A DNA stretch of 64,000 nucleotides from Acidimicrobiales bacterium (GTDB lineage: Bacteria; Actinomycetota; Acidimicrobiia; Acidimicrobiales; SZUA-35): assembly GCA_965216685.1 (NCBI GenBank), contig OZ244195.1, positions 209,610 to 273,609 on the forward strand, in the 5' to 3' direction. Position numbers and translations under genes: made by a program. The notes under the pieces are model-generated. The model was not told where the DNA came from, searched no databases, and saw only the letters and a list, made by a program, of their open reading frames with translations. This document shows, in pieces, positions 11,156-56,695 of this stretch (within the stretch, counting starts at the first letter, position 1; each line of letters begins with the position of its first letter).

Positions 11156-12117
11156 CGGCGGGCCCAGATCTGTTCGCCCCGGCCGGTGTTGATGCCTTCC
11201 GTCTCAGCCCAGAACACCACCGTCGACCGCCAGGTGTCGAGAACGGTGGCCGAATCCATGGTGATGGCCGAGTCGAAGGCGTAGTCCTGCTCGAAGTAGG
11301 GAAGATAGACCTCGATCATTTCCAATAGTGCCATCTGGGCTCCTGACAACTCCGGTTCGATCAGCGGCCGGAAGAGCCGGTGATACACATCCTGGGAGAC
11401 GAACTTGGGCTTCGGACGATCAGGCGGGAGTATGTCGAACAGAACATCGACCATCTGCTCCAGGGTCGGTGCCGCCACTCCGGAGCTGGCATGCACGACG
11501 TCATCGCCGCTCGGTTGGCCGATCTCGGAGGCGATGACGTCGATGACGGCGTCGACCGGGACCACGTCGAGCTGCGCACCGCCTTTGCCGGGGATGGCGG
11601 GGACGAGCCCACACGAGAGCATCCGGATGAACTGGAAGATACCGGAGAAGCGGAGTATGTGCCCGCTGCCACGGCTGCCGATGACCAATGACGGCCTGAC
11701 GATCGTCGGTTCGACGCCACTGGCACGGACCGCCTGTTCGGCCGACCACTTCGACCGTTCGTAGGAGTTGTTGTGCCGACCCGACCGCGGCGGAGCATAA
11801 GCCGACGACACGAACAGAAAGCGGGGTGGCGGGCTGCAGCCGGCGACCGAAGCGGCCAAGGCGGCCGAGGCCGCCACATTTGTCGGCTCCAGCTCATCCC
11901 ATGCCCCGCCGAGGCGAATATCGGCAGCGGCGTGAATCACAAGATCGACCTGACGAACGGCCTCATGCAACTGATCAGGAATGGGATCGTGGAGATCCCA
12001 GAGTATGTCGCCCTGCCGACCGACCGTGACAACGGTGCACATGTCGTCGATCAACCGTTTGTGCAACAACGAGCCGATGGCACCGGTTGACCCGGTCAGG
12101 AGAACGGAGTGGGTCAT
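11152..12117 (-). CDS. thioester-reductase-like SDR (NAD-binding, fatty acyl reductase type)
   Basis: N-terminal Rossmann motif VLLTGSTGAIGS and SSAY...Y..SK-like catalytic context (SSAYAPP...YERSKWSAE). It has 4-nt overlaps with the ACP and LLM genes. Confidence 0.65.
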   Translation of the reverse strand: MTHSVLLTGSTGAIGSLLHKRLIDDMCTVVTVGRQGDILWDLHDPIPDQLHEAVRQVDLVIHAAADIRLGGAWDELEPTNVAASAALAASVAGCSPPPRFLFVSSAYAPPRSGRHNNSYERSKWSAEQAVRASGVEPTIVRPSLVIGSRGSGHILRFSGIFQFIRMLSCGLVPAIPGKGGAQLDVVPVDAVIDVIASEIGQPSGDDVVHASSGVAAPTLEQMVDVLFDILPPDRPKPKFVSQDVYHRLFRPLIEPELSGAQMALLEMIEVYLPYFEQDYAFDSAITMDSATVLDTWRSTVVFWAETEGINTGRGEQIWARR

Positions 12118-18054: not shown

Positions 18055-19566
18055 TCAGCCGTCGCGGGGCGGACCGTCGGGGTCGAAGGGGGCCGGGAAG
18101 CACTCTTCGGGTATGGCCAGCTCGAACTGCTCACAGTAGGCGGTGGCCTCGGCGGCGTCGGCAAACCCGGCAACGTAGAGATTCCAGAATCCGGGCAGCA
18201 GGCTGGGGTACGGATCCGACGGCGACAGCAGCAGATTTTCGTGACCGGCCGCCCGGAATTCGTCGAACTGCTTCATGGCCTCAGCCCAACCTTGTTCGGC
18301 GATGTTCACCGATGAGAGGTTGGCCCGATAGGTGGCCGTCAGCTCCGGAGCCAACACATAGACATCGACGGCATTGGTGTCGGCCGTCTGAGCCCCCGAG
18401 GTGACGGTCACCGAGATCGTATGCCTACCCTCGGGCAGGATCAGTACCGGCAGATAATCAAGGGCCGGCTCTTGGGGAATGTCATCGACCACGACCAGAT
18501 ACTGCGATCCGGCCGGCACACCGTCGATTGTCATCTCATACTTCGTCTCAACCTCCAGCGGTCCGTCGGCTGCGCCCTGCAGAGTAAGAACCGGGGAGTC
18601 GGACAGTGCCGCCGGCGCAGCCGGATCGGCCGTGCTGGAATCGGTCGTATCGTCGGCCGGGTCGGCCGGGTCGGCCTCGAGGTCGTCTTCGACCAGATCG
18701 GCGGCCAGGTCGTCGGATTCGGCGGCAAAGGTGGCGGAGTCGTCATCACCCTGAACGAAGAGGAAGTAGCCGGCGGCCAGGGCCAAGATGCCGAGTAGCG
18801 CCGCCACCGGAATCATCCAGCGAGGGCGATCCTGTTGTACCGCCATGGCCGGCGCCAGTTCCAGCGACGGCCGGCCCATCTCCCTGGGATCAGGACCAAC
18901 GGGTCCGCCGGGAGCGGAACCTCCGGGTACTCCCATGGGCGGGGCCTGGCGACGGTCCGGGCCGGGGCCGGGGCCGAAGTTACCGCGGGCGTCGTAGACG
19001 GCGGTGAAGTCGCCCACCTCGGCCGTCGGCGGCGGTCCGGCCAGGCCCGGTGCGGCCAAGCCGGCCGGGGGCCGGGGAGCCGGGCCGTTGCCAACGACGT
19101 CGGTCGCCCTGGTTGCCGTCAGGGGATGGGGCGGCGCGCCCTGTTTGGGAGCGCCGGGCCCGCCCGAGAACTGGGCCGGAGGCGGCTGATCCCCCTGTAC
19201 CGGGTGCAAAGACGGGCGGTCAGCAGCGGCCGAGGAACTGACCGTCAGATTCTCGTCGTCAGGGACCGAGGCGAACACCGACGGCTCGTCGGGTCGACCA
19301 GCCGGGCTTGGCCCATCGGTCTGCATCAACGGTGGCAGGTCGAGGCGGCGCACCGGCCGCGACGACGTGTCGACCGCGTCCTCCCCAAGGTCCAGACTGG
19401 AGAAGTCATCGGTCGCCCACTCAGCGTCGGTTGGAGCAAACGGTGGTGGACCGACATCAGCCCCTCGATTCTGGCCGTGCTTCGGCCCTCCGCGTTCGTT
19501 ACCCGTCTCGGCCACAGCCGAATCTCCTATCTCGCCACTACCGTCGACGCCGCCGGCACCGACCAT
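18055..19566 (-). CDS. proline-rich single-pass membrane protein with a possible SPOR-like C-terminal domain
   Basis: A long Pro/Gly/Ala-rich N-terminus, a TM segment (WMIPVAALLGILALAAGYFLFV), an acidic linker, and a C-terminal NIAEQGW..A......F..AG.....L.......L.PGFWNLYVAGF pattern. Confidence 0.45.
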   Translation of the reverse strand: MVGAGGVDGSGEIGDSAVAETGNERGGPKHGQNRGADVGPPPFAPTDAEWATDDFSSLDLGEDAVDTSSRPVRRLDLPPLMQTDGPSPAGRPDEPSVFASVPDDENLTVSSSAAADRPSLHPVQGDQPPPAQFSGGPGAPKQGAPPHPLTATRATDVVGNGPAPRPPAGLAAPGLAGPPPTAEVGDFTAVYDARGNFGPGPGPDRRQAPPMGVPGGSAPGGPVGPDPREMGRPSLELAPAMAVQQDRPRWMIPVAALLGILALAAGYFLFVQGDDDSATFAAESDDLAADLVEDDLEADPADPADDTTDSSTADPAAPAALSDSPVLTLQGAADGPLEVETKYEMTIDGVPAGSQYLVVVDDIPQEPALDYLPVLILPEGRHTISVTVTSGAQTADTNAVDVYVLAPELTATYRANLSSVNIAEQGWAEAMKQFDEFRAAGHENLLLSPSDPYPSLLPGFWNLYVAGFADAAEATAYCEQFELAIPEECFPAPFDPDGPPRDG

Positions 19567-19875: not shown

Positions 19876-20727
19876 ATGACGGCCCGTAATTACCCCACCG
19901 ACGACGGTGTCACCGGGCCCGACGGCACGGTCGACCCGGCCTTTCGGGTGGCAGTGAGCTACATCGACCGATCCCGTCGTTACTACCGGGCCAAGGGCTA
20001 CGAGATTCCCTACCGGTGGGCCAGCCATCACGTGGCGCCGTTCAGGCCGCTGGCCAAGCCACTCCCCCGGTCCCGCCTGGCCGTCGTCACCACGGCCTTT
20101 CCGCTCGGCCATCAAGGCGAACCCAAGGAGGCCAGGTCGGTTCGGGCCGTGCCCGCCGACCCCCCACCGGAATCGATGTTCACCGCTGATCTGTTCTGGC
20201 ACAAGAAGGCCACCAACACCGACGACGTCGAGTCGTTCCTCCCCCTGCGTGCCCTGGCCCGCTTCACGGCCGAAGGTCGGATCGGGTCTCTCAACCACCG
20301 CTTCTTCTCCGTGCCCACCCTGTACAGCCAGCGTCGTACCGTGGCCAACGCCGAGACCGTTTCCCAGTGGTGTAGGGCCGACGAGGTGGATGTCGTGCTG
20401 CTGATCCCGCTGTGACCGGTTTGCCACCAAACCGTGAGTTTGGTCGCCCGCCACCTGGAGGAGACCGGCTTCTCCACCGTCATCATCGGTTCGGCCCGTG
20501 ACATCGTCGAGCAGTGCGCCGTCCCCCGATTCCTGTTCACCGACCTGCCCCTGGGGAATCCGTGCGGTCGACCATTCGACCAGGCGATGCAGGCCACGGT
20601 TGTGGCCGGCGCCCTCGACCTTCTGGAGTCGGCCACGGCCCCTCTGACCACGGTCAAGGCTCCGGTCAGCTGGGGCGAGGAATCGTGGCGGTCCACCTAT
20701 ATGACCATCAATGCCGATTCGAGCTGA
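19876..20727 (+). CDS. GrdB/PrdB-family (reductase selenoprotein B-like) protein with in-frame TGA at 20413-20415, candidate selenocysteine
   Basis: The family-like sequence continues in one frame across the TGA: ...ADEVDVVLLIPL[TGA]PVCHQTVSLVARHLEETGFSTVIIGSARDIVEQCAVPRFLFTDLPLGNPCGRPFD. The ORF track shows the two halves as 18835..20415 and 20434..20727, which are in the same frame. Only the part from ATG 19876 lies outside the antisense overlap with 18055..19566. Confidence 0.6.
20426..20444 (+). promoter_or_regulatory. candidate bacterial SECIS hairpin (ACCAAAC-CGUGA-GUUUGGU)
   Basis: A 7-bp perfect stem starts 11 nt after the TGA. Its 5-nt apical loop contains GU about 19-20 nt after the TGA. 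Competing hairpins exist at 20417-20434 and 20457-20478. Confidence 0.35.
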
Positions 20728-20925
20728 CTACTCGTTGGGGATCAACAACCAGAGACCGATGTAGACGATCTCACCAGCGCCGATCAGCCCGAACAGGACA
20801 AAGCCCAGCCGAACCATATTCACACTCAGGCCAAAACGGTCGGCCAGGGCGGCGCACACCCCACCGATGATCCGCCGTCGTCCCCTCGGTCGTACCAGGA
20901 TCTGATCTGACGTCACGATGATCAA
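20728..20925 (-). CDS. PspC-domain membrane protein
   Basis: RRIIGGVCAALADRFGLSVNMVRLGFVLFGLIGAGEIVYIGLWLLIP is a typical PspC domain. Confidence 0.75.
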   Translation of the reverse strand: MIIVTSDQILVRPRGRRRIIGGVCAALADRFGLSVNMVRLGFVLFGLIGAGEIVYIGLWLLIPNE

Positions 20926-23090: not shown

Positions 23091-24509
23091 TTACCAGCTG
23101 AAGGGACGATCGATGCCGGCCAGCTTGACCCCGGTGAAAGCCGAGGCCTCCAACGACAGCGCCCGCAGATCCTCCATCTCCAGATTGTGGACCGACGACT
23201 TGCCGCAGGCCTTGGCCAGCAGGGTGATCTCCATGGTCATGGCCGTCAGATAGCGGGCCACCCGCTCGGCCCCGGCGGCCACGTCCATCCGCTTCTCCAG
23301 CTCCGGATCCTGCGTGGTGATTCCCACCGGGCAGAGTCCGGTGTGGCAGTGGTGGCACTGCCCGGGGCTGGTTCCGAGAGCGGCGTAGTCGTCGAGATAG
23401 CGGGGACTGTTGCAGCCCAGCGACACCAGACCGGCGGTGCCGATCATCACACAGTCGGCCCCCAGAGCCAGGGCCTTGGCCGCATCGACCCCACTGCGGA
23501 TACCACCGGCGGCCACCAGCTTGACCTCATCGGCCATACCGGCGTCCTCCAGCGCTTCCCGGGCGGCCCGGATGGCCGACAGCGTTGGTATGCCGGTGTG
23601 ATCGAGGAGCAGTTCGGGCGATGCCCCCGTACCACCCTCGGCTCCGTCGACCACGATCACGTCAGCCCCGGCCTTGGCGGCGATGGCAACGTCGAATCGG
23701 GGCCGGGTGGCTCCCATCTTCACGAAGATCGGAACCTGGTAGCCGGTGGCTTCCCGCAGCTCCTCGATCTTGACCTGCATGTCGTCGGCCCCCAGGAAGT
23801 CGGGGTGGCGAACGGTGCTGCGCTGATCGACCCCCAGCGGCAGCGAACGCATCCCGGCCACCCGCTCCGAAACCTTCATGCCCAGCAACAGGCCGCCGGT
23901 GCCGGGCTTGGCTCCCTGGCCCACAACCAGCTCGATGGCGTCGACCTGACGGAGGTGGCTGAGGTCGAGCATGTAGCGGGACGGCGTCATCTGGTAGACC
24001 AGCAGGTCGGAGGCCTCCCGCTCGTCTTCCAGCATGCCGCCCTCGCCGGTGCAGGTCATCGAGCCCACCTTGGACGCCCCGTAGCCCAGGGCGGCCTTGG
24101 CCGAGGCCGAAAGCGCACCGAACGACATCGAGGCGATGTAGATCGGGATCTTCAGCTCCAGTGGCCGTTCCACCAGCCCGGGACGATCGCCCAGCACGGT
24201 GGTTGTGTCGCAGCTCTCCCGGTAGCCCTCCAAAGGCAGGCGGGTCATCGACGCCGGCACGAACGTCAGGTCGTCGAAGGTGGGGAAGCGGGAGTTGAAG
24301 GTGGTGAATCCCCGGATCTGGTAGCGACCCAGCCGGGACAGGGCGTGGACCTCGGAAATGGACTCCGGTGTCCAACGGATCGATTTGCCCCGGTCATAGG
24401 ACGACGGGACACCAGCCGGTCGGCCGTCCACCGCCCCGTCGCTGTAGGCCACCTCCTCCTCGGAGGGCATTGTGAACGGATACTCGTAACGCCCTAGATC
24501 ATCAGCCAT
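23091..24509 (-). CDS. FMN-binding glutamate-synthase-domain protein (GltB domain 2 / MgsC-like)
   Basis: MSFGALSASAKAALGYGA, GEGG, QGAKPGTGGLL, VVDGAEGGTGASP and a CHHCHTGLCPVGITTQ Cys cluster. The ATG at 24509 overlaps the upstream stop by 16 nt. Confidence 0.8.
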   Translation of the reverse strand: MADDLGRYEYPFTMPSEEEVAYSDGAVDGRPAGVPSSYDRGKSIRWTPESISEVHALSRLGRYQIRGFTTFNSRFPTFDDLTFVPASMTRLPLEGYRESCDTTTVLGDRPGLVERPLELKIPIYIASMSFGALSASAKAALGYGASKVGSMTCTGEGGMLEDEREASDLLVYQMTPSRYMLDLSHLRQVDAIELVVGQGAKPGTGGLLLGMKVSERVAGMRSLPLGVDQRSTVRHPDFLGADDMQVKIEELREATGYQVPIFVKMGATRPRFDVAIAAKAGADVIVVDGAEGGTGASPELLLDHTGIPTLSAIRAAREALEDAGMADEVKLVAAGGIRSGVDAAKALALGADCVMIGTAGLVSLGCNSPRYLDDYAALGTSPGQCHHCHTGLCPVGITTQDPELEKRMDVAAGAERVARYLTAMTMEITLLAKACGKSSVHNLEMEDLRALSLEASAFTGVKLAGIDRPFSW

Positions 24510-25192
24510 GCGCTTGCGTCCCTGCTCTCGAAGTGCCACAGCTTCTGGCCGGACACGATCTTCTTCCAGTCGCGGTCGCCAGGCCCGACCTCCAGCCCGG
24601 CCAGCAACTCATCGACCGAGGCCACTTCGGCCGCCTCCGGCTCGACCACCTTGGTGTCGACCCCCAGGCTCTTGATCGAGCCGGCCACCCAGACCTCCCC
24701 GCCCCACAGCGAGTCGCCGGTGGCCTCGCCGGCGTCGCCCAGGGCGATGATCCGCCCGTCGTGGGCCATGAATCCGGAGAGAAAACCGAGGTCGCCCTCG
24801 ATGACGATGTCGCCCCCTTTCATGGCCACACCGCAGCGGGGCCCGGCGTCGCCCTTGACGTGGACCAGGCCGCCCCGCATGGAGGCCCCAACGCTCATCC
24901 CGGAATAGCCGGCCACCGTGACCCGACCGGAGGCCATGGCTTCACCGGTCCCCCAGCCTGCGTTGCGGGTGACGGCGATCTCGGCCCCGTCGTTCAAGCC
25001 ACCGCAGTAGTAGCCGACCGAACCCTCGAATCGGACGTTGGCCCCCTCGGGCAGTGCCACCCCCAGGTTGTGACGGGATCGGGTGTCGGTGACCACGATG
25101 GTCCGCCCGGCGGCGGCCAAGGCCCGGATCTCGGCGTTGATCTCCCGGATCGGACGCTCGCCGACCTCCACAGTGGTCTCGGTCACGGTCAT
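24494..25192 (-). CDS. GXGXG-motif protein (glutamate synthase alpha-subunit C-terminal domain / MgsB-like)
   Basis: This is the last 232 codons of the 566-aa track ORF. It carries repeated G-x-G-x-G beta-helix motifs (GSVGYYCGGLNDGAEI, GWGTGEAMASGRVTV, GMSVGASMRGGLVHVKGDAG). ATG 25192 overlaps the upstream TGA (ATGA). Confidence 0.75.
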   Translation of the reverse strand: MTVTETTVEVGERPIREINAEIRALAAAGRTIVVTDTRSRHNLGVALPEGANVRFEGSVGYYCGGLNDGAEIAVTRNAGWGTGEAMASGRVTVAGYSGMSVGASMRGGLVHVKGDAGPRCGVAMKGGDIVIEGDLGFLSGFMAHDGRIIALGDAGEATGDSLWGGEVWVAGSIKSLGVDTKVVEPEAAEVASVDELLAGLEVGPGDRDWKKIVSGQKLWHFESRDASAWLMI

Positions 25193-26157
25193 CGGGCCGA
25201 CCCCGCCCCGGCCGATCCGGCGCCGGCCATCGAGCGAACCGACCAGACCTTGGTCAGGCTGGGCCCGTCGTAGTTGGCCATCTCGACGTCGTCGAGGTAG
25301 ATCTTGCGGACCGCCTGCTCCTCGGTGGCCACCGCCAGGGTGCCGCTCTCCTCCTCCACCGCCACCAGGGGTTTGATGGCGAAGGGATCCTTGGCGAAGG
25401 CCATCGAGTCGATGGTGGCCAGGATGTAGGTGAAGCAGCCGTCGAGTTTGATCACCGAGTCCTCCAGCGATTCCTCGATCTTGTGGCCCTTGGCCATCTG
25501 GTCCGACAGCCAGATGGCGATCAGCTCGGAATCGTTGTCGGTCTTGAAGTCGTAGCCGGCCCTGATCAGCCGGCCTTTGAGCAGCTGATAGTTGGTGAGC
25601 TGTCCGTTGTGGACGATGGCGATGTCGGGATACGGCCGGGCCCAGAACGGATGGGAGGCGGTGGGCGAGACGAACGACTCGGTGGCCATACGGGCATTGG
25701 TCAGACCGTGGGACCCCACGAAGTCCCTGACCCCGTGTTTGTCGGCCACCGTGTACCCGTCTCCCAGGTCCTTGATGATCTCCAACGATCGACCGACCGA
25801 TTGGATCTCGAAGCCATCGATGTGATCGGCATCGGCCAGCCACTGTTCGAAGGTGGAGGTGGGGTCGGTTATCTCCAGGCGGACTGAAACATGGTCGGTG
25901 GTGTCGTCGTCCCAGGTCGGCTGGCCGATGAAGTCGGAGCCGTGGCTCCGTGCTATGGCCAGGAAGGTTTCGAGGTGGTCGGACAACGACGCTCTGTCGG
26001 CCACCACCCGCACGACGTAGGAGTCGGTGCGGGGTTCGCCGTACATGCCGAAGCCGGTGGAGTCGGCCCCCCGGTGCCGTTGGGCCTGAATCAACTCGAC
26101 CAGGTCGGCCCCGATAGACCCGTGGGGGCAGAGTATCCGGCCTGCTATGCCGCACAT
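25189..26157 (-). CDS. class II (Ntn) glutamine amidotransferase-domain protein (GltB domain 1 / MgsA-like)
   Basis: ATG 26157 gives the MCGIAG N-terminus (nucleophile Cys2) and lies 6 nt after an AAGGAG site. The track start at 26163 is a TTG two codons upstream. Confidence 0.75.
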   Translation of the reverse strand: MCGIAGRILCPHGSIGADLVELIQAQRHRGADSTGFGMYGEPRTDSYVVRVVADRASLSDHLETFLAIARSHGSDFIGQPTWDDDTTDHVSVRLEITDPTSTFEQWLADADHIDGFEIQSVGRSLEIIKDLGDGYTVADKHGVRDFVGSHGLTNARMATESFVSPTASHPFWARPYPDIAIVHNGQLTNYQLLKGRLIRAGYDFKTDNDSELIAIWLSDQMAKGHKIEESLEDSVIKLDGCFTYILATIDSMAFAKDPFAIKPLVAVEEESGTLAVATEEQAVRKIYLDDVEMANYDGPSLTKVWSVRSMAGAGSAGAGSAR

Positions 26158-26213
26158 CGGCAACTCCTTCCGCTCGGCGGATCCTCGGGATCATCGAGGA
26201 TCCAGACGAGTAC

Positions 26214-26270: not shown

Positions 26271-26891
26271 TCAGCCCAACCCCTCGCACCGGTCGAGCAG
26301 ATGCTCGAGCAGATCGACGTGATCCCGCACCTCGCCCTCCTTGAAGGGCACGGTGTAGGGCGGTAGTGGGGGGAAGTAGACGGCGGTGATGGTTCCCGCC
26401 AGCGGAACCAGTTCGATGTGTACACCGCCCGGATCATGCACCACCGACATCGACTTCAGTTCGGACCGACCGGCCAGCTGCCGGGTTTCCTCATCGGCCA
26501 AGGCCTCGGCCACGTCCCGGGCGGAATCCAGGGCCTTGGTGGCGAAGGCGCGGCGGTCGAAGCGGTAGTTGTAGCGGGCCGCCCGCTCCCCCGGCTCGCC
26601 CTTGCGGGCGATCCACTGGGTGTCGATCAGCGCCCCGAACAGCCGGAAGTTTCCCTTGAATCCCACTTCGATGGTCGCACCGTCGGGCCGCACGGTCCGT
26701 GCCGACCGGTAGTCGACCTCGTCAAAAACCACGTGGTCGGCACCGTAACGGCGAACCAGCTCGCCGTGGGGAAGCTCGATGAGGGAGCGGCGCCGGGCCC
26801 GATAGAGCGTCCGGACACGACCACCGAGGCCGAGAAAGGTGGACCCGGTGTCAAAACCGGATCCACCCTCGGTTCGAGTCCTGCCGGTCAT
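26271..26891 (-). CDS. DUF3156-like hypothetical protein
   Basis: This is the last 206 codons of the 339-aa track ORF. ATG 26891 overlaps the permease TGA (ATGA). The family assignment is from memory only. Confidence 0.45.
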   Translation of the reverse strand: MTGRTRTEGGSGFDTGSTFLGLGGRVRTLYRARRRSLIELPHGELVRRYGADHVVFDEVDYRSARTVRPDGATIEVGFKGNFRLFGALIDTQWIARKGEPGERAARYNYRFDRRAFATKALDSARDVAEALADEETRQLAGRSELKSMSVVHDPGGVHIELVPLAGTITAVYFPPLPPYTVPFKEGEVRDHVDLLEHLLDRCEGLG

Positions 26892-28312
26892 ACAGTCTGA
26901 TGAAGTTCCTCTTCGAGATGATCGGCCTGGCCCGACGAGCCCCGCATGGCATAGGAGATGACGGCCACGACGGCCGAACCCAGGATCATCCACAGAGCCC
27001 GCGGCCCGTAGAAATCGTGGCCGCCTCCGGTGAAGGTCTGATACCACACATACACGGTGAGCAGAAAGCCGATCACCGGCACCACCAGTGGCAACTTGAA
27101 AGGCCGGTTGACGTCTGGGTTGACGTAGCGGCTGCCCGCCACCAGCACGTGGTAGGTGATGTAGAGCAGCATCCAGACGTAGGCGGCGGTGAAGATCAGG
27201 TCGCCGACCCCGGCCCCTCCGTCGGCCACGATCCCCCAGTAGATGGTGACGAAGGTGTAGAGCACGGCGGTGAACAGGATGGCCACCCACGGCGTCCGGT
27301 AGCGGGCGTGCACACTGCCGAACGGCTTCGACAACGGACCGAGGAAATGGCCGTTGCGGGACATGCCGTAGAGGATGCGGGGCATCGAGGCGTAGACCAC
27401 GGTCAACGAGGCGAAGGAGGCCACGGTGGCGGCCAGCGCCATCAGGAAGCGGCCGCTACCGCCGAACATGGCCTCACCGACCTCGAGCTGGGGGGCGTCC
27501 TCGGAGACGATACCGGCCCACTCGGAGTTGATGCCACTGACACCCAGTCCCATGAACATCGAGGTGGCCAGAATGGCTATCAACCCCCAGACGATACCCC
27601 GGGGGATGTTGCGGGCCGGATCCCTGGTCTCCTCGGCCAGGGGGGCCACGAACTCGATGCCGACGAAACTCCAGAAGGCCCAGGCCCCGGCGATGGCCAT
27701 CAGGCCGCTCAAGCCGCTGAACTCGGCCGGTGTCGACGGTATGTTGCCCCACGACCAGCCACCGAGGTCGCTGAACCCAAGGAATCCGGCCAGCCCGAAG
27801 AACCAGCGGATGGCCAGCATGACGATGATCAGGCCCAGCTCCAGCTTGGCCAGCACCTCGATGCCGAACAGATTGGGAATCACGGCGAACACCGTCAGGA
27901 TCAACACCCACATGGTGACGCTTCCGCCGTCGAACAACCCGACCATGCCCGAGGCTCCGGCCAAGGTCTCACCGGCGCCGGCGAACATGAACATCACATA
28001 GAACAGCAGACCGAGGAAGATGCCGACCACGGTCTTGGCCGCATGCCCCCCGGGGGTGGCGGCGGCGCCGTAGTCGTACAGTGCTCCGGCCTTGGGATAG
28101 GTGGTCGACAGCTCGGCCGCCGACAGACCCAGCAGCAGGTTCACCACGAACATGGCCAACAAGCCCACGGCAAAGCCCCGGCCGGCGGTGAACCATCCCT
28201 GGAAGTCCGATACCAGCGTGGAGGCCGCCACCACCAAGCCGACGCCGGCGGCGAATATGTCCTTCGTGCCGAGAGCCTTTTTCAGGCCCTCCCCCTCAAC
28301 GACAGCAGTCAT
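26888..28312 (-). CDS. APC-family amino acid/amine permease
   Basis: About 12 hydrophobic segments and 474 aa, with an AAGGAG site 7 nt upstream of the ATG. Confidence 0.8.
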   Translation of the reverse strand: MTAVVEGEGLKKALGTKDIFAAGVGLVVAASTLVSDFQGWFTAGRGFAVGLLAMFVVNLLLGLSAAELSTTYPKAGALYDYGAAATPGGHAAKTVVGIFLGLLFYVMFMFAGAGETLAGASGMVGLFDGGSVTMWVLILTVFAVIPNLFGIEVLAKLELGLIIVMLAIRWFFGLAGFLGFSDLGGWSWGNIPSTPAEFSGLSGLMAIAGAWAFWSFVGIEFVAPLAEETRDPARNIPRGIVWGLIAILATSMFMGLGVSGINSEWAGIVSEDAPQLEVGEAMFGGSGRFLMALAATVASFASLTVVYASMPRILYGMSRNGHFLGPLSKPFGSVHARYRTPWVAILFTAVLYTFVTIYWGIVADGGAGVGDLIFTAAYVWMLLYITYHVLVAGSRYVNPDVNRPFKLPLVVPVIGFLLTVYVWYQTFTGGGHDFYGPRALWMILGSAVVAVISYAMRGSSGQADHLEEELHQTV

Positions 28313-31390: not shown

Positions 31391-32031
31391 TCCTGTCGAC
31401 CCTCGATCGATTCGATCGTGGTGACGGCGGCCTCCATGGCCGTCTCCACCGCCGATTCGGTGCCGGAGAAGAAGGCCCGACCGAAGCGGCCCACGGCCCG
31501 CACCTCGACCAGGTCGATGTCGGCCGATTTCTCGGCTTCATTGACGGCGGCCCCCACGTAGGCCGCCGGACTGCATTCCACGATGCCCAGGGTCTGTCCC
31601 GGCACCAGGAGGGAACCCGACCGCCACTTGTTCAACAACTGAGCCTGGTAGGGCTCAACCGAGGTGATGACCTGAGTCGACTCCAACCGCGGTTTCACCC
31701 GATCATTGATCGACAGTCCCAGCATGTCGAGCACGGCGTCCCGGGCGGCCGAGATCTCGGCGTTGACCGGCGACCGGAGGATGAAGAAGCCGAACTCCCG
31801 CTCGACGATCTGGGTGGTGGCCTCGATGGTGGCCGCCTTGAGCGCGGTGTCGATGACCCGGAACACGGTGTTGCCGGGAGCGAACTCGCCCATCAGGATG
31901 GTGTCGCCGGCCAGTGGGATCGAACCCTGGACGGTGGCCCCGTTGTAGGCGGCGAACTTGGGTTGCAGCCGGTTGATCTGCAGCAGGGCCCGCATGGTCA
32001 ACGGGCTGGTCACCCCAGCGTTCCGGCTCAC
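31387..32031 (-). CDS. BMC-T shell protein (tandem BMC domains)
   Basis: Two BMC-like halves: GDTILMGEFAPGNTVFRVIDTALKAATIE...FILRSP and LGIVECSPAAYVGAAVNEAEKSADIDLVEVRAVGRFGRAFFSGTESAVETAMEAA. GTG 32031 overlaps the AldDH TGA. An ATG at 31995 is an alternative start. Confidence 0.7.
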   Translation of the reverse strand: MSRNAGVTSPLTMRALLQINRLQPKFAAYNGATVQGSIPLAGDTILMGEFAPGNTVFRVIDTALKAATIEATTQIVEREFGFFILRSPVNAEISAARDAVLDMLGLSINDRVKPRLESTQVITSVEPYQAQLLNKWRSGSLLVPGQTLGIVECSPAAYVGAAVNEAEKSADIDLVEVRAVGRFGRAFFSGTESAVETAMEAAVTTIESIEGRQE

Positions 32032-33416
32032 GTTTGATCCTCCCCGTAGACGTCGAAGATGGTGCGCCACGGCCGCGACTCGTAGACCACCCGTTTGATG
32101 TTGATCAGATGGAGAGCGTTGACGTTGTCGGACACGATCGAACCCGACCCGGTTCCGGTGCCCAGCATGAAGCTCGGTTCGAGGTCGGAGGAGTAGCCCA
32201 TGGCGGCCATGAGCGCCGGCTGATTGACCACCACCCGGCCGCTGGGGAGCCGGGCAAAGCGGGACACCACCGAGGCGTCGTGGCTGTGGATCACCGCGGT
32301 GTGACCGACCCCGCCCCAATCCAGGATCCGGCCGGCCAGATCCAGCCCGTGGTCGACGGTGGCCGCCTCGTACCAGGCCAGCACCGGGTTGAGTTTCTCC
32401 AGGCTCAACGGCCGGTGGCGGCCGACCTCGGTCTCGGCGGCCAGCAGCACCGTGGTGCCGGGCGGGATGTCGAACCCGGCCCGTTGGGCCAGGGTTTGGG
32501 CCGACTGGCCTACGCCGCCCGGTCGGATGTGCTGGGACTCGTCGAAGATCACATCGGCCAGTCGCTCGGCTTCAGCCGGACTGCAGAAATAGCCTCCCCC
32601 CTGCCTGATCTCGGCCCGGAGGGCGGCGGCGATGGACCGGTCGACGATGACGGCCTGCTCCCCGGCACAGGCCGTGCCGTAGTCGAAGGCTTTGGAGATG
32701 AGGATCTGCTCGGCCACGTCGGCCACCTCGTCGACCATCGACTGGTGGACGTAGCACGGCACGTTGCCCGGACCGACGGCCAGTGTCGGTTTACCCGACT
32801 GGTGGGCGGCCCGGACCATGGCCGATCCGCCGGTGGCCATGATGATGGCCGTCTTCCGGTGCCGCATCAGAGCATCGGTGCCCTCCAGCGTGACCTCGTC
32901 GAGGCACTGGATCAGGCCGTCGGGTGCGCCGTGGTTGCGGGCGGCCTCGGCCATGACCCGGGCCGTCTCCCGACCGCAGTTCACTCCCCGGGGATGAGGA
33001 GCGCAGACAATGGCATTGCCCGACTTGATGGCCGACAGAACCTTGAAGATGATCGTCGAGGTCGGGTTGGTCACCGGGATGATGGCGGCCACCACCCCCA
33101 TCGGTTCGCCCACCGCCATTGTCCTGGTGTTGGCGTCGTGCCACAGCACCCCGAGGGTGGTGATGTTGCGCAGCCAGTCGGCCACCCCCCGGGCGTTGAA
33201 CAGGTTCTTGATCCGCTTGTCGGGGGCGTTGCCGTAGCCGGTTTCCTCGGCCGCCATGACGCCCAGCCGGGCGGCCTCGGTTTCGATGGCCTGGGCCATG
33301 GCCTCGACGATGCGGTCGATATGCTCCGGTGGCGTGCCCCGGAACTTCTCGAAGGCGACGTGGGCCGACTCCACCGCCTGGCGTGCTTGGGCGATGCTTC
33401 GCAAATCGGCATCCAT
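32028..33416 (-). CDS. CoA-acylating aldehyde dehydrogenase (PduP/EutE-like)
   Basis: This is the last 462 codons of the 914-aa track ORF, starting MDADLRSIAQARQAVESAHVAFEKF. It has IIPVTNPTST, a catalytic Cys context (DYGTACAGEQ), VGPGNVP, and lacks the long oligomerisation tail of non-acylating ALDHs. Confidence 0.8.
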   Translation of the reverse strand: MDADLRSIAQARQAVESAHVAFEKFRGTPPEHIDRIVEAMAQAIETEAARLGVMAAEETGYGNAPDKRIKNLFNARGVADWLRNITTLGVLWHDANTRTMAVGEPMGVVAAIIPVTNPTSTIIFKVLSAIKSGNAIVCAPHPRGVNCGRETARVMAEAARNHGAPDGLIQCLDEVTLEGTDALMRHRKTAIIMATGGSAMVRAAHQSGKPTLAVGPGNVPCYVHQSMVDEVADVAEQILISKAFDYGTACAGEQAVIVDRSIAAALRAEIRQGGGYFCSPAEAERLADVIFDESQHIRPGGVGQSAQTLAQRAGFDIPPGTTVLLAAETEVGRHRPLSLEKLNPVLAWYEAATVDHGLDLAGRILDWGGVGHTAVIHSHDASVVSRFARLPSGRVVVNQPALMAAMGYSSDLEPSFMLGTGTGSGSIVSDNVNALHLINIKRVVYESRPWRTIFDVYGEDQT

Positions 33417-34591
33417 CACGACCACCCGATTCCCAGGCTGTCGATGGTTCTCCGGACCGTGCCCATGGAGTCGGCCCGGATACCGATGCGATCGAGACGG
33501 CGACCGGCCGAGTCCAGGTCGCCGCCGAGGACGGCCTTGGCCATGTCGATCATCGAGCGGGTGGCGGGAACGTCGATACCGGCCGGCTCGGCCGCCGACG
33601 CCAGCGGCACCAGCGATCCCAACACGGCACAACGCAGCCGGGACCGGGCCTCGACGGCAGTAGGAATCGTTCGGCCTCCCTCCTCGCTCCCGTCGCCCAC
33701 CACGGCGGCGATGGTGGCCGCCGGATCGGGGAGATCCCGGACACCCCACCGTTCGGCCACCCGGCGGCGCTCGTCGACCAACCGCTCGACCAGCTCGACC
33801 TGACCGGGTTGGAACCGGGACGCCATGCTGGCCCCGGCCAGGGCCACCGCCCCCGGAGGCAGGTCGGGAGACTCGTCGAACACCGGACCCCCGACCAGCA
33901 GGGCCACGGCCTCCACCGCCCCCGAGTGGTCGGCGAAGCTGGAGTGGATGACGGTCGGAGCCGAGACGATGGAGGGAAAGAACCGTTGCAGGCCGGTCAC
34001 CACGGCGTCGAGTGAACTGGGCAGGGTGGCCACCATCGGGTCGACACCGGGATGGAAGTGCAGTACGTGATCGCGGCGCTCCAGCCCGAAGGGCAGGGCC
34101 GACATCTCGGCCACCGTCACCCGGTTGGAGGCACCTCCCACCCGCAACCACCAGGTGGTCTCCAGTGCTCCGAAGGTCCGCCCGGGGGCCACCAGGAGAA
34201 TCTGATCCTCGGCCAGCCGGTCGGCCAGGACCAGGCCGTAGGTCCGTTGCTTCAGGACGGTGCCGGTGACGACGATCAGATCGGCCCCGGCGACGGCCTC
34301 CTCCAGGATCGAGGTCACGGCGATGTGGGGTCCGTCGCCTTGGGTCTGGTAGGTGCCGATTGGACCGGCACCGCGCACGGTGACACCCCGGGCCAGCCGG
34401 GCCAGGTCGTCCTGGTAGACCGAGAACAACGAGACCCCACCGGCCCCGTTGGCCAGGAACCAGGCGGCCAGGGCTTGGCCCTCGATCCCGCCGCCCAGGA
34501 CGGCGACCCGGTCGATGACCGGTTGGGGTTCGGGGGGACGCTGGTCGTCGGTGAACGACTCCAGCACGGCTTGAAAGTCGGCCGAGGTCAT
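33416..34591 (-). CDS. opine (octopine/nopaline)-dehydrogenase-family NAD(P) oxidoreductase with a short N-terminal helix plus Pro-rich linker
   Basis: Rossmann motif VAVLGGGIEGQALAAW, then LIVVTGT..., then LVAPGRTFGALET...VTVAEMSALPFGLERR...VATLPS. This parallels the PG.TGGALE...ET.S.LF..R...A.LP pattern of opine dehydrogenases. Confidence 0.6.
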   Translation of the reverse strand: MTSADFQAVLESFTDDQRPPEPQPVIDRVAVLGGGIEGQALAAWFLANGAGGVSLFSVYQDDLARLARGVTVRGAGPIGTYQTQGDGPHIAVTSILEEAVAGADLIVVTGTVLKQRTYGLVLADRLAEDQILLVAPGRTFGALETTWWLRVGGASNRVTVAEMSALPFGLERRDHVLHFHPGVDPMVATLPSSLDAVVTGLQRFFPSIVSAPTVIHSSFADHSGAVEAVALLVGGPVFDESPDLPPGAVALAGASMASRFQPGQVELVERLVDERRRVAERWGVRDLPDPAATIAAVVGDGSEEGGRTIPTAVEARSRLRCAVLGSLVPLASAAEPAGIDVPATRSMIDMAKAVLGGDLDSAGRRLDRIGIRADSMGTVRRTIDSLGIGWS

Positions 34592-34608
34592 CGACTGTCG
34601 GGCCGGGC

Positions 34609-34893
34609 TCAGTCAGCCTGAGGCAGGATCGACTCCACCTCGGCCGACGGGCGGGGGATGACGTGGACCGAGACGACGTCGCCCACCTTGTTGGCGGCCA
34701 CCGCCCCGGCGTCGGTGGCGGCCTTGACCGCGCCGACTTCACCTCGGACGAACACCGCCACCAGGCCGCCACCCACCTTCTCGCTGCCCACCAGCGTCAC
34801 GTTGGCCGCCTTGATCATGGCGTCGGCGGCTTCCACCGCTGCCACCACACCTCGGGTTTCGACCATTCCAAGCGCAACTTGCTCCATTGTCAC
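34609..34893 (-). CDS. BMC-H shell protein (PduA/CcmK-type hexamer)
   Basis: [57 protein letters not shown] is a canonical BMC domain. Confidence 0.9.
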
Positions 34894-35204: not shown

Positions 35205-36491
35205 TCAGAACCTCCGCAGGTAACGCGCCGTTTCCACCGGCGTCACCTGCTGGGCCATGAACTCGATCTCCCGCTCGGCCTGCCCGATCCAGATGCCGAG
35301 GAGATCTTCCCCCAGCAGATCGGCCACGAACTCCGATTCCCGAGCTGCGGCCACGGCGGCCTCGATGGTCACGGGAATGGGTTGGGCCTCGCCGTTCTCG
35401 TAGGCGTTGCCCAGGTCGGGATCGCCGGGATCGAGATCCTCCTCGATTCCCCGTAGACCGGCGGCGATCTGGGAGGCCAGTAGGTAATAAGGGTTGGTAT
35501 CAGCCGAGCCGTCGCGCTGTTCGATGCGGACCGCGCTGTCGTGGCCCTCGATGACCCGGAGGCCGACGGTGCGGTTGTCGTATCCCCAGGCGTTGTTGGT
35601 GGGGCAGAAGGTGTAGGGCTGACGGCGACGGTAGGCGTTGGGGGTGGACGCCGACAGCAACGCCGTTTCCGCCATGTGTCGTCTCATGCCGGCCAGATAC
35701 TGGCGGCCGATGGCCGACAGCTTGCCGCCATCGGCGAAGATGTTCTTGCCGTCGCGCCAGGCCGAGTGATGGACGTGGAATCCCGAGCCGGACTCCTCGA
35801 AGAACGGCTTCGACATGAAGGTGGCGACGTAGCCGTTGGCCACCGCCAGTTGTTTGATCATGCCCCGGAAGGCCACCACGTTGTCGGCGGTGGCCATGGC
35901 TTCGCCGTAACGGATGTTGACCTCGACCTGACCGGCGGCGTACTCCGGGTTCGACTGTTCGATGGGGATGCCGGCGGCGGTGAGGTCGTTGCGGATCGGA
36001 CCGAGGATCGATTCCAGCTCCATGGCCCGTTCCAGGCCGTAGACCTCGATGCCCGAGTCGCGGGGCCGCAGGGTCTCGGGGTCGAGCAGATAGAACTCGA
36101 GTTCGGCTCCGATGGAGATCTCCAGCCCCATGTCGGCCGCTTTGTCGGCCACCTTGAGCATCACGTTGCGGGGGTCGATGGGGCAGGGTGCGCCGTCCTC
36201 GGTCTGAACCTTTCCGGGACAGAAGGCGGCGCCGGGATCCCAGGCCATGGGCCGCACCTCGTCCGAGTCGGGGAGCACGAAGATGTCGGGGTAGCCGGTC
36301 TCGAAGTTGGTGTAGGGCGTGTCCCAGATGTCGCATGTCATGTCGAGAGCGAAGATGGCGTTGGACATGGCCATGCCGTGCTCGGCCACAGTGGGCCAGT
36401 GACTGGCCGGGATGCGTTTGCCCCGGAGGATGCCGTTGGTGTCCCCCACGCCCAGGACAACGGTGTGAATTCCCTCGGGCAGCTGGCTCAT
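35205..36491 (-). CDS. glutamine-synthetase-family gamma-glutamyl-amine ligase (GmaS/PuuA/GlnA3-like)
   Basis: GS catalytic-domain motifs are present (GAELEFYLLD, NPEYAAGQVEVNIRY, KPFFEESGSGFHVHHS, NAYRRR). It is the first gene of the BMC operon. Confidence 0.75.
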   Translation of the reverse strand: MSQLPEGIHTVVLGVGDTNGILRGKRIPASHWPTVAEHGMAMSNAIFALDMTCDIWDTPYTNFETGYPDIFVLPDSDEVRPMAWDPGAAFCPGKVQTEDGAPCPIDPRNVMLKVADKAADMGLEISIGAELEFYLLDPETLRPRDSGIEVYGLERAMELESILGPIRNDLTAAGIPIEQSNPEYAAGQVEVNIRYGEAMATADNVVAFRGMIKQLAVANGYVATFMSKPFFEESGSGFHVHHSAWRDGKNIFADGGKLSAIGRQYLAGMRRHMAETALLSASTPNAYRRRQPYTFCPTNNAWGYDNRTVGLRVIEGHDSAVRIEQRDGSADTNPYYLLASQIAAGLRGIEEDLDPGDPDLGNAYENGEAQPIPVTIEAAVAAARESEFVADLLGEDLLGIWIGQAEREIEFMAQQVTPVETARYLRRF

Positions 36492-36594
36492 TTGTTCTCC
36501 TCGTGCATGGTTCCCCCAATGCCGTAGTCGTTGGTCCCCGGTTCGTCTCCCACCGGAGCGGCTCTGATCGCGGCTTGCCCTACCCTACATCGAC

Positions 36595-36609
36595 TGAATA
36601 CAGTATTCA
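36595..36609. promoter_or_regulatory. operator-like perfect palindrome, copy d (TGAATAC-A-GTATTCA)
   Basis: It lies between the divergent GS-like/BMC operon (start 36491) and the FAD oxidoreductase gene, ending 2 nt before that gene's ATG at 36612. Confidence 0.6.
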
Positions 36610-36611
36610 AT

Positions 36612-37754
36612 ATGCCTGAAGCCGACGTTGTCATCGCCGGAGCCGGCATCGTCGGACTGTGCACCGCCCGCGAGCTTCAGGCCGCCGGGGCCGACGTCAT
36701 GCTGGTCGACCCATGGGAGCCAGGCCACGCCCGCCAGGCGTCAGCCGGCATCCACCGGGTCATCCGCTCGACCCACGGCAGCGATGAGCTGTACACCCGT
36801 TGGGCCCGGGAATCACGGCTGCGGTGGCTGGAGATGCAGGCCACCACCGACACCCCCATCTACCACGAATGCGGGGCCGTGGTCCTCGCCGCCGAAGGCC
36901 ACGACGAATGGGAGATGGCAACCATCCCGACCTTCGACCGGCTCGGCATCCCCTACCTGCGCCTGTCACCCGATGAGCTGGTGGTTCGCTTCCCCACCTT
37001 CGACCCCCGGCAGGTGGCCTTTGCCCTCTACGAACCGGAGGCCGGCTTTCTCTGGTCCCGCAACATCGTGCGCAAACTCTACGCCGACTTCCTGACCGCC
37101 GGCGGGCGGTTCCGGCGAACCCGGTTGACCGTGTCCGACGACGAGCGGCCGCTGCTGGAGGGCCGACCGGTGGAGGCCGAACACACCGTCATCGCCAACG
37201 GGGCGTGGATGGGATATCTACTGCGCTCCTCCCTGGGTCGCCTGCTGCGGGTGGTCCGCCAAGACATCATCTACACCAGCGTTCCCGAAAACGACGACCG
37301 CTGGCACGCCGACCGCCATCCGGTCTGGATCGACCACGGCTACGGGGCCTACGGCATCCCCGACGCCGGAGGCTACGGCTTCAAGGCCGCCATTGCCTGG
37401 CATGAGTCCGACATCAGGCTCGACGACGACGACCGGGTGGTCGATCGGGCCTCCATGGCCCGGTCCCAGCAGTATTTGGGTTACCGCTTCCCCGACATCG
37501 CCGGGCAGGCCATCGTCGACCAGAAGGTATGCCAGATCGTCATGACCCCCGACACCCACTTCCTGCTCGACACCCACCCTGAGCATTCCGATGTGATTCT
37601 GGCCGGTGGCGGATCGGGGTCGATCTTCAAACACGGCCCGGTGGTCGGCGCCTACGTGGCCGGCATGGTTCAGGGCCGCTGGCGGCCCGACGACCGTTTC
37701 ACCCTGGCCAACCGGCGAAGCCTGTCGATGGCCGAATCCCCCTCCGGCCGCTAG
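36612..37754 (+). CDS. FAD-dependent amine/sarcosine-oxidase-like oxidoreductase (DAO family)
   Basis: ATG 36612 gives MPEADVVIAGAGIVGLCTARELQAAGADVMLVD (a dinucleotide fold at the N-terminus). The track start at 36531 (TTG) would put the palindrome inside the coding sequence. Confidence 0.75.
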   Translation: MPEADVVIAGAGIVGLCTARELQAAGADVMLVDPWEPGHARQASAGIHRVIRSTHGSDELYTRWARESRLRWLEMQATTDTPIYHECGAVVLAAEGHDEWEMATIPTFDRLGIPYLRLSPDELVVRFPTFDPRQVAFALYEPEAGFLWSRNIVRKLYADFLTAGGRFRRTRLTVSDDERPLLEGRPVEAEHTVIANGAWMGYLLRSSLGRLLRVVRQDIIYTSVPENDDRWHADRHPVWIDHGYGAYGIPDAGGYGFKAAIAWHESDIRLDDDDRVVDRASMARSQQYLGYRFPDIAGQAIVDQKVCQIVMTPDTHFLLDTHPEHSDVILAGGGSGSIFKHGPVVGAYVAGMVQGRWRPDDRFTLANRRSLSMAESPSGR

Positions 37755-45115: not shown

Positions 45116-45580
45116 ATGGCCGTAAAGATGATTACGACCAACAAGCAGGCCCACCGCAACTATGACATCACCGAGACCTTCGAGGCCGGGATCGCCCTTC
45201 GGGGTAGTGAGGTCAAGTCGCTGCGGGAGTCGAAGGTCCAGATCAGCGATGCCTACGCTCGTTTCGAGGACGGTGAGCTGTGGCTCGTCGGGCTGCACAT
45301 CGCCCCCTACACCCGGGCCAGCACCCATCAACGATACGATCCGACCCGCAAGCGAAAGCTGCTTCTGCACCGGGCGGAACTCGATCGGCTGTTCTCCAAG
45401 TCGGAGCAGGATCACCTGGCGTTGGTTCCCATGGCCCTCTACTTCAAGAACAACCGGGCCAAGCTCGAGGTGGGCCTCGGTCGGGGCCGAAAGACCGTTG
45501 ACAAGCGACAGTTGATCGCCAAGCGGGATGCCGACCGGGAAGCTCGCCGGGAGCTGGCGGAACGCACCCGCCGCCGCTGA
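45116..45580 (+). CDS. smpB: SsrA-binding protein
   Basis: NKQAHRNYDITETFEAGIALRGSEVKSLR and the LHIAPY motif. Confidence 0.9.
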   Translation: MAVKMITTNKQAHRNYDITETFEAGIALRGSEVKSLRESKVQISDAYARFEDGELWLVGLHIAPYTRASTHQRYDPTRKRKLLLHRAELDRLFSKSEQDHLALVPMALYFKNNRAKLEVGLGRGRKTVDKRQLIAKRDADREARRELAERTRRR

Positions 45581-45705
45581 ATCGACCGGTATGATGGATG
45601 GTTCCCCAACCGGGGCCGGTTCGGCCACAGGCTGGACCACGCTACTTGAAACGAAACGAGCCACATGGCGGCCCCCGGGCCGTCCGACCGGCTTGTTTCA
45701 ACCTC

Positions 45706-46090
45706 GGGGCTGATCGGTTTCGACGTTGAGACGAGAAGTCGTGTGTGCGACCCGAGTTGCTCAGACTCGTTAAACGGGGCTTAACAGAAGCGCCAACAAG
45801 GCTGACTTCGCTCTCGCCGCCTGATAATCAGGTAGCTAGAGGAACATCGCGAGCCGCGAGGCCACGCGGGGCCTGATCATTGCAGCCCGGCAACAGAAGC
45901 AGTGGTGGACGATGGGAGAGACCATTGACGGCAGGCAAAGACCGCTGACTCCTGGGAAAGCCCAGGCGGAATGCCGCAAGGCAACGTTGACCCGGCAACC
46001 AGGCAACCGTAGAGCCGAATCACGGGAATGGTCGTAGCGTGTGCGATGACTCCTCAGCGGACGGGGGTTCGATTCCCCCCAGCTCCACCA
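45706..46090 (+). ncRNA. ssrA: tmRNA (transfer-messenger RNA)
   Basis: The 5' end GGGGCTGATCGGTTTCGAC pairs with the 3' tRNA-like end GACGGGGGTTCGATTCCCCCCAGCTCCACCA. The tag reading frame is GCC AAC AAG GCT GAC TTC GCT CTC GCC GCC TGA TAA (tag ...ADFALAA). It lies immediately downstream of smpB. Confidence 0.85.
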
Positions 46091-49382: not shown

Positions 49383-50918
49383 TCAGCCTCGTCCGATGAC
49401 GGCCGGATACATGGCCGCCACCAGCTCGTCGGATCGGCGACTGATCGGCTCCCACCACGTCTTGTCGTAGCGGTAGTGGTCCCACAACGAGACCGACTCA
49501 TCACCCTCCAGAAGCAGGTCAATGGCCTGACCGCCCACGAATGCGGGATGGGCGTGACCGCAGGCATGGGCCAGCATCAGGAGCTCGTGGCGGAGACTGA
49601 GCACATAGTTGGCGGCCCGAACCGATTTGTCGGTCGGATCGAGCCCCCGGGTGAGCCACTTACTGTGGGTGGCCACCCCGGTGGGGCAGTGTCCGGTATG
49701 GCAACGCTGGGCCTGGATACAACCAACAGCCAGCATCGCCTCCCGGGCCACGTAGATCATGTCGGCCCCCAGGGCCATGGCCAGCAGACTCTCCCCGGGG
49801 AAGCCCAGACGCCCGGCCCCCATCCAGACCACCTTGTCGTGCATGCCCTGACCGGCAAACGTGCGGAAGACTTCGGCCATGCCCATCCGGTACGGCAACG
49901 AGACGTGATCGGAGAAGGCCAGCGGTGCCGCTCCGGTGCCGCCCTCACCACCATCGATGGCGATGAAGTCAGGTCCCCGCCCGGTGACCGCCATGGTGTG
50001 AGCCAGCTCGCTCCAGAAATGGCGGTCGCCGACCGCCGACTTGATACCGACCGGGAGACCGGTGGCCTCAGCCACCGTCTCGATGAAGTCGATCATGGAC
50101 GGCACCGAGTCGAAGGCCGAGTGATTGGCCGGGCTGGCCACGGTGATCCCGACGGGTACGCCCCGGGCTTCAGCTATCTCCTCGGTCACCTTCGACCCGG
50201 GCAGGCGACCGCCGAGCCCGGGCTTTGCTCCTTGGCTGAGCTTGATCTCAATGCACTTGATGGTGGGCACCGAATCCACCAGCTCCACCGCCTTGTCGAG
50301 GTTGAACGTACCATCGGGGTTTCGGGCGCCGAAGTAGCCGGTACCGAACTGCAGGATCAGATCGCCGCCATGTCGATGGTGTCGGCTGACGCCACCTTCA
50401 CCGGTGTTGTGCATACAGCCGGCGATCTTGGCCCCTCGGTTCAACGCCTCGATGGCCACGCCTGACAGCGAGCCGAAGCTCATGGCCGAGATGTTGACCA
50501 CCGACTCCGGCCGGAAGGCTTTGGGCCGGTTGCGCCACTCCCCCATGATCTTGGCGCAGGGCAGGTGGCTCTCCTCACTGGGATCGATGCCGTCGGGCAC
50601 CCGGAAAGGGAAGGCCGAGTGGCGGATGATCGGATACTGGGGCGAATCCATCTTGGAGTCGGTACCGAACCCGAAGTACTGGTTCTCCCGCTTGGACGAG
50701 GCGTACACCCAGCGTCGTTGGTCGCGGCTGAAGGGTCGTTCCTCGTCGTTGTCGGTAACTATGTACTGACGGAGCTCCGGCCCTATCTTCTCCAGGAGGT
50801 AGCGGAGCCGCCCGATCAGTGGATAGTTGCGGCGCACGGCGTGGCGTGTCTGAAACAGATCGACGACGACCAGCCACAGTACGAGGCCGACGAGGAGCAA
50901 CCCGATGATCCAAACCAT
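49383..50918 (-). CDS. membrane-anchored FMN-binding glutamate-synthase-domain protein (second paralogue)
   Basis: An N-terminal TM segment (VWIIGLLLVGLVLWLVVV), then ISAMSFGSLS, GEGG, QGAKPGLGG, IDGGEGGTGAAP and CHTGHCPTGVATH. Confidence 0.75.
   Translation of the reverse strand: MVWIIGLLLVGLVLWLVVVDLFQTRHAVRRNYPLIGRLRYLLEKIGPELRQYIVTDNDEERPFSRDQRRWVYASSKRENQYFGFGTDSKMDSPQYPIIRHSAFPFRVPDGIDPSEESHLPCAKIMGEWRNRPKAFRPESVVNISAMSFGSLSGVAIEALNRGAKIAGCMHNTGEGGVSRHHRHGGDLILQFGTGYFGARNPDGTFNLDKAVELVDSVPTIKCIEIKLSQGAKPGLGGRLPGSKVTEEIAEARGVPVGITVASPANHSAFDSVPSMIDFIETVAEATGLPVGIKSAVGDRHFWSELAHTMAVTGRGPDFIAIDGGEGGTGAAPLAFSDHVSLPYRMGMAEVFRTFAGQGMHDKVVWMGAGRLGFPGESLLAMALGADMIYVAREAMLAVGCIQAQRCHTGHCPTGVATHSKWLTRGLDPTDKSVRAANYVLSLRHELLMLAHACGHAHPAFVGGQAIDLLLEGDESVSLWDHYRYDKTWWEPISRRSDELVAAMYPAVIGRG

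Positions 50919-53899: not shown

Positions 53900-56695
<2,796 letters not shown>

Follow-up and report, generated by a model that had tools for sequence, protein, structure and literature searches.

The window, by which we mean the whole 64,000-nucleotide stretch of DNA analysed here, carries a gene whose in-frame TGA at 20413-15 is, on comparison with homologous genes, almost certainly a real selenocysteine (Sec) codon with its own RNA insertion hairpin. Judged by alignment, this gene belongs to the selenoproteins that the marine metagenome surveys listed as "proline reductase PrdB". That family has been catalogued since 2005, hence the window gene is mainly a missed annotation and not a discovery. 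A genuine selenoprotein gene, in which the UGA would be decoded via a SECIS element to give a stand-alone PrdB-like product, is a highly probable reading of the locus. The features on which the argument turns are:

18055-19566, reverse strand: ORF of 503 residues with no Pfam match, divergent from the selenoprotein gene (GC3 0.76)
19876-20727, forward strand: complete gene for a candidate PrdB-like stand-alone selenoprotein (translation, homologues, GC3)
20413-20415, forward strand: UGA almost certainly read as Sec180, which would open a U-P-V-C-H-Q redox motif (Cys column, at least 120 loci with TGA, Sec position of PrdB)
20422-20424, forward strand: codon of Cys183, the presumed resolving cysteine of U-x-x-C (invariant in 120 aligned sequences)
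20423-20447, forward strand: putative SECIS hairpin (RNAfold, pairing, covariation, covariance model)
20728-20925, convergent: PspC-domain gene adjoining the stop codon of the selenoprotein gene

The interrupted frame and its homologues

Translation of the forward strand gives a single 283-codon frame from ATG 19876 to TGA 20725-20727, and its sole interruption is the TGA at 20413-20415. A sequence-only reading of the window had proposed this interrupted frame, together with the read-through peptide ...VDVVLLIPL-U-PVCHQTVSLVARHLE..., and both are reproduced by translation, as is its claim that a listed ORF at 20434-20727 (97 codons, opening at GTG) shares the frame of ATG 19876 and begins seven codons past the TGA. 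ATG 19876 is the first ATG of the frame after the upstream gene and a 309-nt intergenic region, and the N-terminus it gives matches the homologues in length. GC3 is 0.84 before the TGA and 0.83 after it. In public protein collections the gene is present only as a 179-residue N-terminal fragment (P0001, 19876-20415), which stops at the Sec codon, hence the selenoprotein appears to be mis-annotated there. The Sec-bearing tryptic peptide is predicted to contain ...LLIPL-U-PVCHQTVSLVAR.

TGA is an ordinary stop codon elsewhere in the window, where it closes 29 of 46 ORFs, and a genome-wide reassignment of UGA was rejected on this count. A scan of the 64-kb window for other genes with an in-frame TGA returned gene ends and off-frame artefacts only.

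A search of protein collections retrieved 3660 homologues, nearly all of ~290–300 residues, and the full-length ones are 47–57% identical to the window protein across the TGA. When 21 full-length homologues were aligned, the TGA fell on a column where every one of them has Cys. This Cys opens a C-P-V-C-H-Q motif that is itself invariant, and conservation runs on past it to the C-terminus. The earlier reading had named the alignment of Cys with the TGA as a check on its proposal, and all 21 homologues bear it out. In a larger set of 120 aligned sequences Cys occupies this column in at least 90%, and the window protein keeps every one of the 20 downstream residues that are invariant in that set.

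We also back-translated the motif with TGA at the Cys position and scanned one genome per bacterial or archaeal species. TGA was found at exactly the same column in at least 120 loci from many phyla, with the frame open on both sides in all those listed. The 120 listed loci are all homologous to the window protein, and in 113 of them the BLASTP alignment spans the TGA site. Since the same TGA column lies in an open frame in at least 120 loci, neither a sequencing error nor a private nonsense mutation explains it. These Sec-type loci, as listed, come from Alpha-, Beta-, Gamma- and Deltaproteobacteria, Myxococcota, Acidimicrobiales and other Actinomycetota, Chloroflexota (Dehalococcoidia, Anaerolinea), Rokubacteria/Methylomirabilota, Binatia and Spirochaetales, and include one in a cultured strain, Enhydrobacter aerosaccus ATCC 27094. 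Two Sec-type paralogues were seen on separate contigs of one MAG or strain in several cases (L021/L030, L005/L065, L027/L091 and L087/L113).

The window protein ends ~25 residues before most homologues and is without their C-terminal helix (L..G.ERR..Q). Its closest listed Sec-type relatives (Binatia, L026 and L083) and the homologue P0013 are similarly short, hence the early C-terminus looks like natural variation and not truncation.

The hairpin downstream of the TGA

Bacteria that insert Sec through SelB are known to use a hairpin just 3' of the UGA with G-U in its loop, as in Escherichia coli fdhF, where the loop bases are G23 and U24 counted from the UGA. The sequence-only reading had pointed to such a hairpin at 20426-20444, and RNAfold predicts the same one: ACCAAAC (20426-20432) pairs with GUUUGGU (20438-20444) in a 7-bp stem, closed by the loop CGUGA (20433-20437). 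The stem opens at the 11th nucleotide after the TGA, and the loop G and U are nucleotides 22 and 23 when the U of UGA is 1. Beyond a C.C mismatch (20425/20445), RNAfold also pairs 20423-24 with 20446-47, which lengthens the hairpin by two outer base pairs. The element thus resembles the fdhF type in lying within the ORF, in starting at the 11th nucleotide after the UGA and in its apical-loop G-U, but differs in having a family-specific stem sequence and an internal C.C mismatch instead of a bulged U.

Folding energy alone is unremarkable (z = -0.72; 56 of 200 shuffled sequences fold equally well), hence the hairpin was judged by comparison with other genomes. As a control we used 119 Cys-type genes from metagenomes, which show the same pattern but with TGY in place of the TGA. 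Past the TGA, Sec-type genes read CAY CAG ACC GTG AGT CTG RTC, with synonymous positions conserved too. The loop codon GTG is present in 86% of Sec-type and 12% of Cys-type genes, the Ser codon AGT in 79% and 7%, and the Leu codon YTG in 100% and 78%, respectively. Pair 18-26 forms in 92% of Sec-type but only 10% of Cys-type genes, and all seven inner pairs are standard in 81 of the 120 listed Sec-type genes against two of the 119 Cys-type genes. The loop G-U is invariant in the listed Sec-type genes (120/120).

Covariation follows the same division. Across the 120 listed Sec-type sequences 95.3% of cells are paired, falling to 22–32% when the 3' arm is slid, and 48 cells show compensatory (double-sided) change against a shuffled mean of 16.1, a count reached by none of 500 shuffles. 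Examples include CAG...CTG versus CAA...TTG, CAC...GTC (Val) versus CAT...ATC (Ile), and ACC...AGT versus TCC...GGA. The resulting family consensus is UGA N10 A-Y-C-A-R-A-C / C-G-U-G-A / G-U-Y-U-G-R-U.

The window gene itself carries this signature. Given the peptide HQTVSLV and the codon usage of this genome, the probability of forming all seven pairs is 0.03, and three of its codons here are rare choices among their synonyms in this window of 65% G+C (CAA 18%, AGT 5.7%, TTG 12%; joint probability 0.0013). With the TGA excluded, its 42 downstream nucleotides score +6.05 bits as Sec-type, a value matched by one of the 119 Cys-type genes. A covariance model trained on the 119 other Sec-type genes, with the window left out, found its sole match in the 64 kb at 20413-20457 (67.7 bits, E ~6e-12; next best 10 bits), whereas 100 Cys-type controls scored 24–58 bits, all below the window. 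The Rfam SECIS families gave no match to the window at gathering or permissive thresholds. Covariation, and the absence of the hairpin from Cys-type genes, thus support the proposal that the hairpin at 20423-20447 functions as a SECIS element.

Two variants of the element were seen among the related loci. Five loci from Gammaproteobacteria/Pseudomonadales (L006, L012, L029, L082 and L101) read CAG TCG GTC AGT TTG, so that pair 18-26 becomes a U.U mismatch and the loop contains GUC, and this subgroup may use a slightly different folding register. Furthermore, a few Cys-type loci keep a near-intact SECIS-like sequence, such as L170 at 11441-11485, to which the covariance model gives 57.7 bits; these loci may have switched from Sec to Cys recently.

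A dead or mis-sequenced gene is a very unlikely explanation of these observations. The TGA would then be a TGC that was misread or mutated, or the mark of a Sec-type gene stranded after loss of its machinery, with the 179-residue fragment as the only product. That fragment is indeed all that public databases hold, and the Sec machinery is absent from the 64-kb window, in which we found no tRNA-Sec, selA, selB or selD; a search of 40 related loci for tRNA-Sec was also negative. However, the Sec-type signature is independent of the TGA (CAA, AGT, TTG, the GTG loop and the seven pairs), and a point error in a Cys-type gene would have had to strike one of the very few such genes with the seven pairs (2/119) or with the log-odds score of the window (1/119). 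Decay, which the earlier reading had listed as a way in which its proposal could fail, is opposed by an undamaged downstream half, with no second lesion, all of the downstream invariant residues kept and a GC3 of 0.83. A SECIS element kept intact against codon bias, together with this undamaged half, makes a recently stranded gene unlikely.

A distant PrdB homologue outside prd and grd operons

Entries named "Proline reductase PrdB" in the supplement of the Sargasso Sea survey (Zhang, Fomenko & Gladyshev 2005, PMC1088965) include AACY01093821, which reads ...LLVPLuPVCHQTVGLVARHLESNGIPTVIAGSARDIIEQCGVPRFLFTDFPLGNP... and whose U-P-V-C-H-Q is identical to that of the window protein. Over 168 residues this entry and the window protein share 53% identity (E = 3e-68), and their Sec positions coincide. 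In the supplement of the GOS survey (Zhang & Gladyshev 2008, PMC2398784) PVCHQ occurs 86 times and UPVC 106 times, with examples under "#Proline reductase". With 42 Sec genes and one Cys homologue, the family took third place in the Sargasso Sea (PMC1088965), and in GOS it counted 235 Sec and 110 Cys members (PMC2398784); a UxxC motif was reported in both surveys (PMC1088965, PMC2398784). The marine entries are metagenome fragments, whereas the window holds a complete gene in a 65% G+C genome that is probably actinobacterial. Furthermore, the surveys file the family under D-proline reductase, a function that the tests made here do not support. No experimental evidence of the family's activity was found in the literature searched.

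Sequence profiles place the window protein as a distant, full-length homologue of PrdB that lies below every curated family threshold. The PrdB profile TIGR04483 matched at 72.1 bits (E = 5e-20, profile positions 20–223 of 238) against a cut-off of 300, the GrdB-type profile TIGR01918 at 26.2 bits against 65.45, TIGR01917 at 21.7 bits against 602 and the Pfam GRDB family PF07355 at 13.5 bits against 22. By comparison, TIGR04483 gives 434 bits over the full model to a Clostridioides difficile PrdB sequence, a score that validates it as a reference. When this reference was aligned with the family profile by hhalign, 215 columns matched at 22% identity with a probability of 99.2%, and AG-U-GTCH of PrdB was placed on PL-U-PVCH with the Sec columns coinciding.

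The likeness to the D-proline reductase subunit PrdB of Clostridium sticklandii and C. difficile therefore covers nearly the whole PrdB length and includes U-x-x-C-H and a similar segment after Sec (…RAIEESGIPTIII… vs …RHLEETGFSTVII…). Unlike PrdB, the family of the window protein has an extra conserved N-terminal region of ~50 residues, identity is only 22%, and no prdA proprotein or prd operon lies nearby in the window or in related loci. Selenoprotein B of the GrdB/GrdF/GrdH type belongs to the same superfamily and shares the Sec-x-x-Cys centre, but the match is limited to the C-terminal third of GrdB (profile ~277–422 of 431), and the window protein is without the GrdB N-terminal half and the third Cys of UxxCxxC. 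Hence the sequence-only reading was right to relate the protein to GrdB/PrdB with a U-x-x-C motif, whereas its description as GrdB-like gives way to one as PrdB-like.

Structure was modelled with AlphaFold2 on P0002, a 56%-identical homologue standing in for the window protein (pLDDT 91, pTM 0.91). In this model C170 and C173 lie between a strand (163–167) and the N-terminus of a helix (171–186), which is the usual geometry of redox C-x-x-C centres. A sequence search of the PDB found no solved relative, and Foldseek with the P0002 model returned nothing at E <= 1e-3, only a generic likeness to Rossmann/B12-domain folds (TM ~0.27).

The selenoprotein gene stands alone. Upstream, a helicase gene lies beyond the divergent 503-residue ORF; downstream and convergent with the selenoprotein gene are the PspC-domain gene, an RNA methyltransferase gene, clpP and a tRNA-Leu gene. 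None of prdA, prdC, grdA, grdE, grdC or grdD was detected among 40 scanned ORFs of the window, and when ORFs within 5 kb were clustered across 238 related loci no conserved neighbour occurred in more than ~26 of them. The earlier remark that no grd partner is nearby thus extends to prd genes and to the related loci. Operons are the usual setting of prd and grd genes (PMC13188914), hence the absence of such neighbours places the selenoprotein gene outside any prd/grd operon.

Elsewhere in the window, a set of genes at 23091-50918 resembles amine utilisation of the N-methylglutamate/methylamine type (23091-26194, 26888-28312, 32028-34772, 35205-36491 and 49383-50918 on the reverse strand, 36531-37754 on the forward strand). 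It includes glutamate-synthase FMN-domain, GXGXG-domain, amino-acid permease and type-III GlnA/gamma-glutamyl-amine synthetase-like proteins, an MTOX/sarcosine-oxidase-like flavoprotein, a 914-residue aldehyde-dehydrogenase fusion and a second Glu_synthase-domain gene. No link between this set and the PrdB-like gene was found. The regions 45116-46090 and 50991-56695 hold, in order, secA, prfB (RF2), ftsE/ftsX, smpB and tmRNA (tag ANKADFALAA), and the window also encodes a Septum_form-domain protein, an F420-dependent LLM oxidoreductase and a CMAS-type methyltransferase, a combination that suggests an actinobacterial origin of the DNA.

It is highly improbable that the gene encodes a true PrdB of D-proline reductase, or a B subunit of glycine, betaine or sarcosine reductase, whose PrdA/GrdE partner and remaining subunits would be encoded at other loci of the genome. 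Full-length homology to PrdB and the coincident U-x-x-C-H are what such a subunit would show, and both databases and literature call its relatives "D-proline reductase PrdB" or "glycine reductase". Against this, the profile scores are far short of their thresholds (72 vs 300, 26 vs 65 and 13.5 vs 22 bits), identity to PrdB is low and the ~50-residue N-terminal extension is specific to the family. Many of the carriers (Reyranella, Enhydrobacter aerosaccus, Pseudomonadales) come from groups that are not known to carry out Stickland-type fermentation, which also speaks against a true PrdB. Gene context agrees: the 40 scanned ORFs of the window include no prd or grd gene and the 238 loci show no conserved neighbour, although such genes as a rule lie in operons (PMC13188914). 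What is added here to the known family is that its "PrdB" label is unsupported by curated criteria or gene context.

Proposed mechanism and significance

A split gene, in which the UGA is a true stop and a C-terminal part starting at GTG 20434 assembles with the N-terminal part as a second polypeptide, is barely credible: the GTG does open a 97-codon ORF seven codons past the TGA, but it is the SECIS loop codon and, being conserved in Sec-type and rare in Cys-type genes (86% vs 12%), tracks the TGA and not a start site, a restart there would remove the invariant P-V-C-H-Q, and it is not plausible that in at least 120 loci the break should fall on precisely the catalytic Cys column, with that residue lost.

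Under the selenoprotein reading, a ribosome arriving at the UGA at 20413-15 would meet the in-CDS hairpin at 20423-20447, whose loop G-U would recruit SelB-GTP-Sec-tRNA(Sec); Sec would be inserted as residue 180 and translation would run on until the stop codon that begins at 20725. The resulting protein of 283 residues would be a stand-alone member of the PrdB-like branch within the GrdB/PrdB superfamily, the one listed in the marine surveys. If PrdB and GrdB are a guide, Sec180 could act as the nucleophile of a U-x-x-C centre at a helix N-terminus and attack the substrate, after which Cys183 would resolve the adduct to a selenenylsulfide that a thiol system re-reduces. The Sec180/Cys183 couple may thus carry out a reductive cleavage analogous to that of PrdB or GrdB, with a thiol reductant. 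That this organism inserts Sec here is inferred, as are the catalytic cycle and the nature of the reductant, and the substrate is probably not D-proline. With no conserved neighbour and no solved structural relative, the catalytic part of this scheme is without an anchor.

For annotation, a full selenoprotein would replace the 179-residue public fragment, and the gene suggests that UGA is decoded as Sec by this organism. From the comparative set comes a clean SECIS consensus specific to this family, for which the Cys-type genes serve as matched control. More broadly, we lean towards the view that the "PrdB" selenoproteins, which are widespread in oceans and soils and also occur in this actinobacterium, are orphan, partner-less selenoenzymes with their own N-terminal module and no solved fold relative, and are not proline reductases. 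If this is true, one of the most abundant environmental selenoprotein families would have been misnamed for two decades, with its chemistry still to be found. The status of these proteins as selenoproteins has itself been known since 2005, and the family is a good target for biochemistry.
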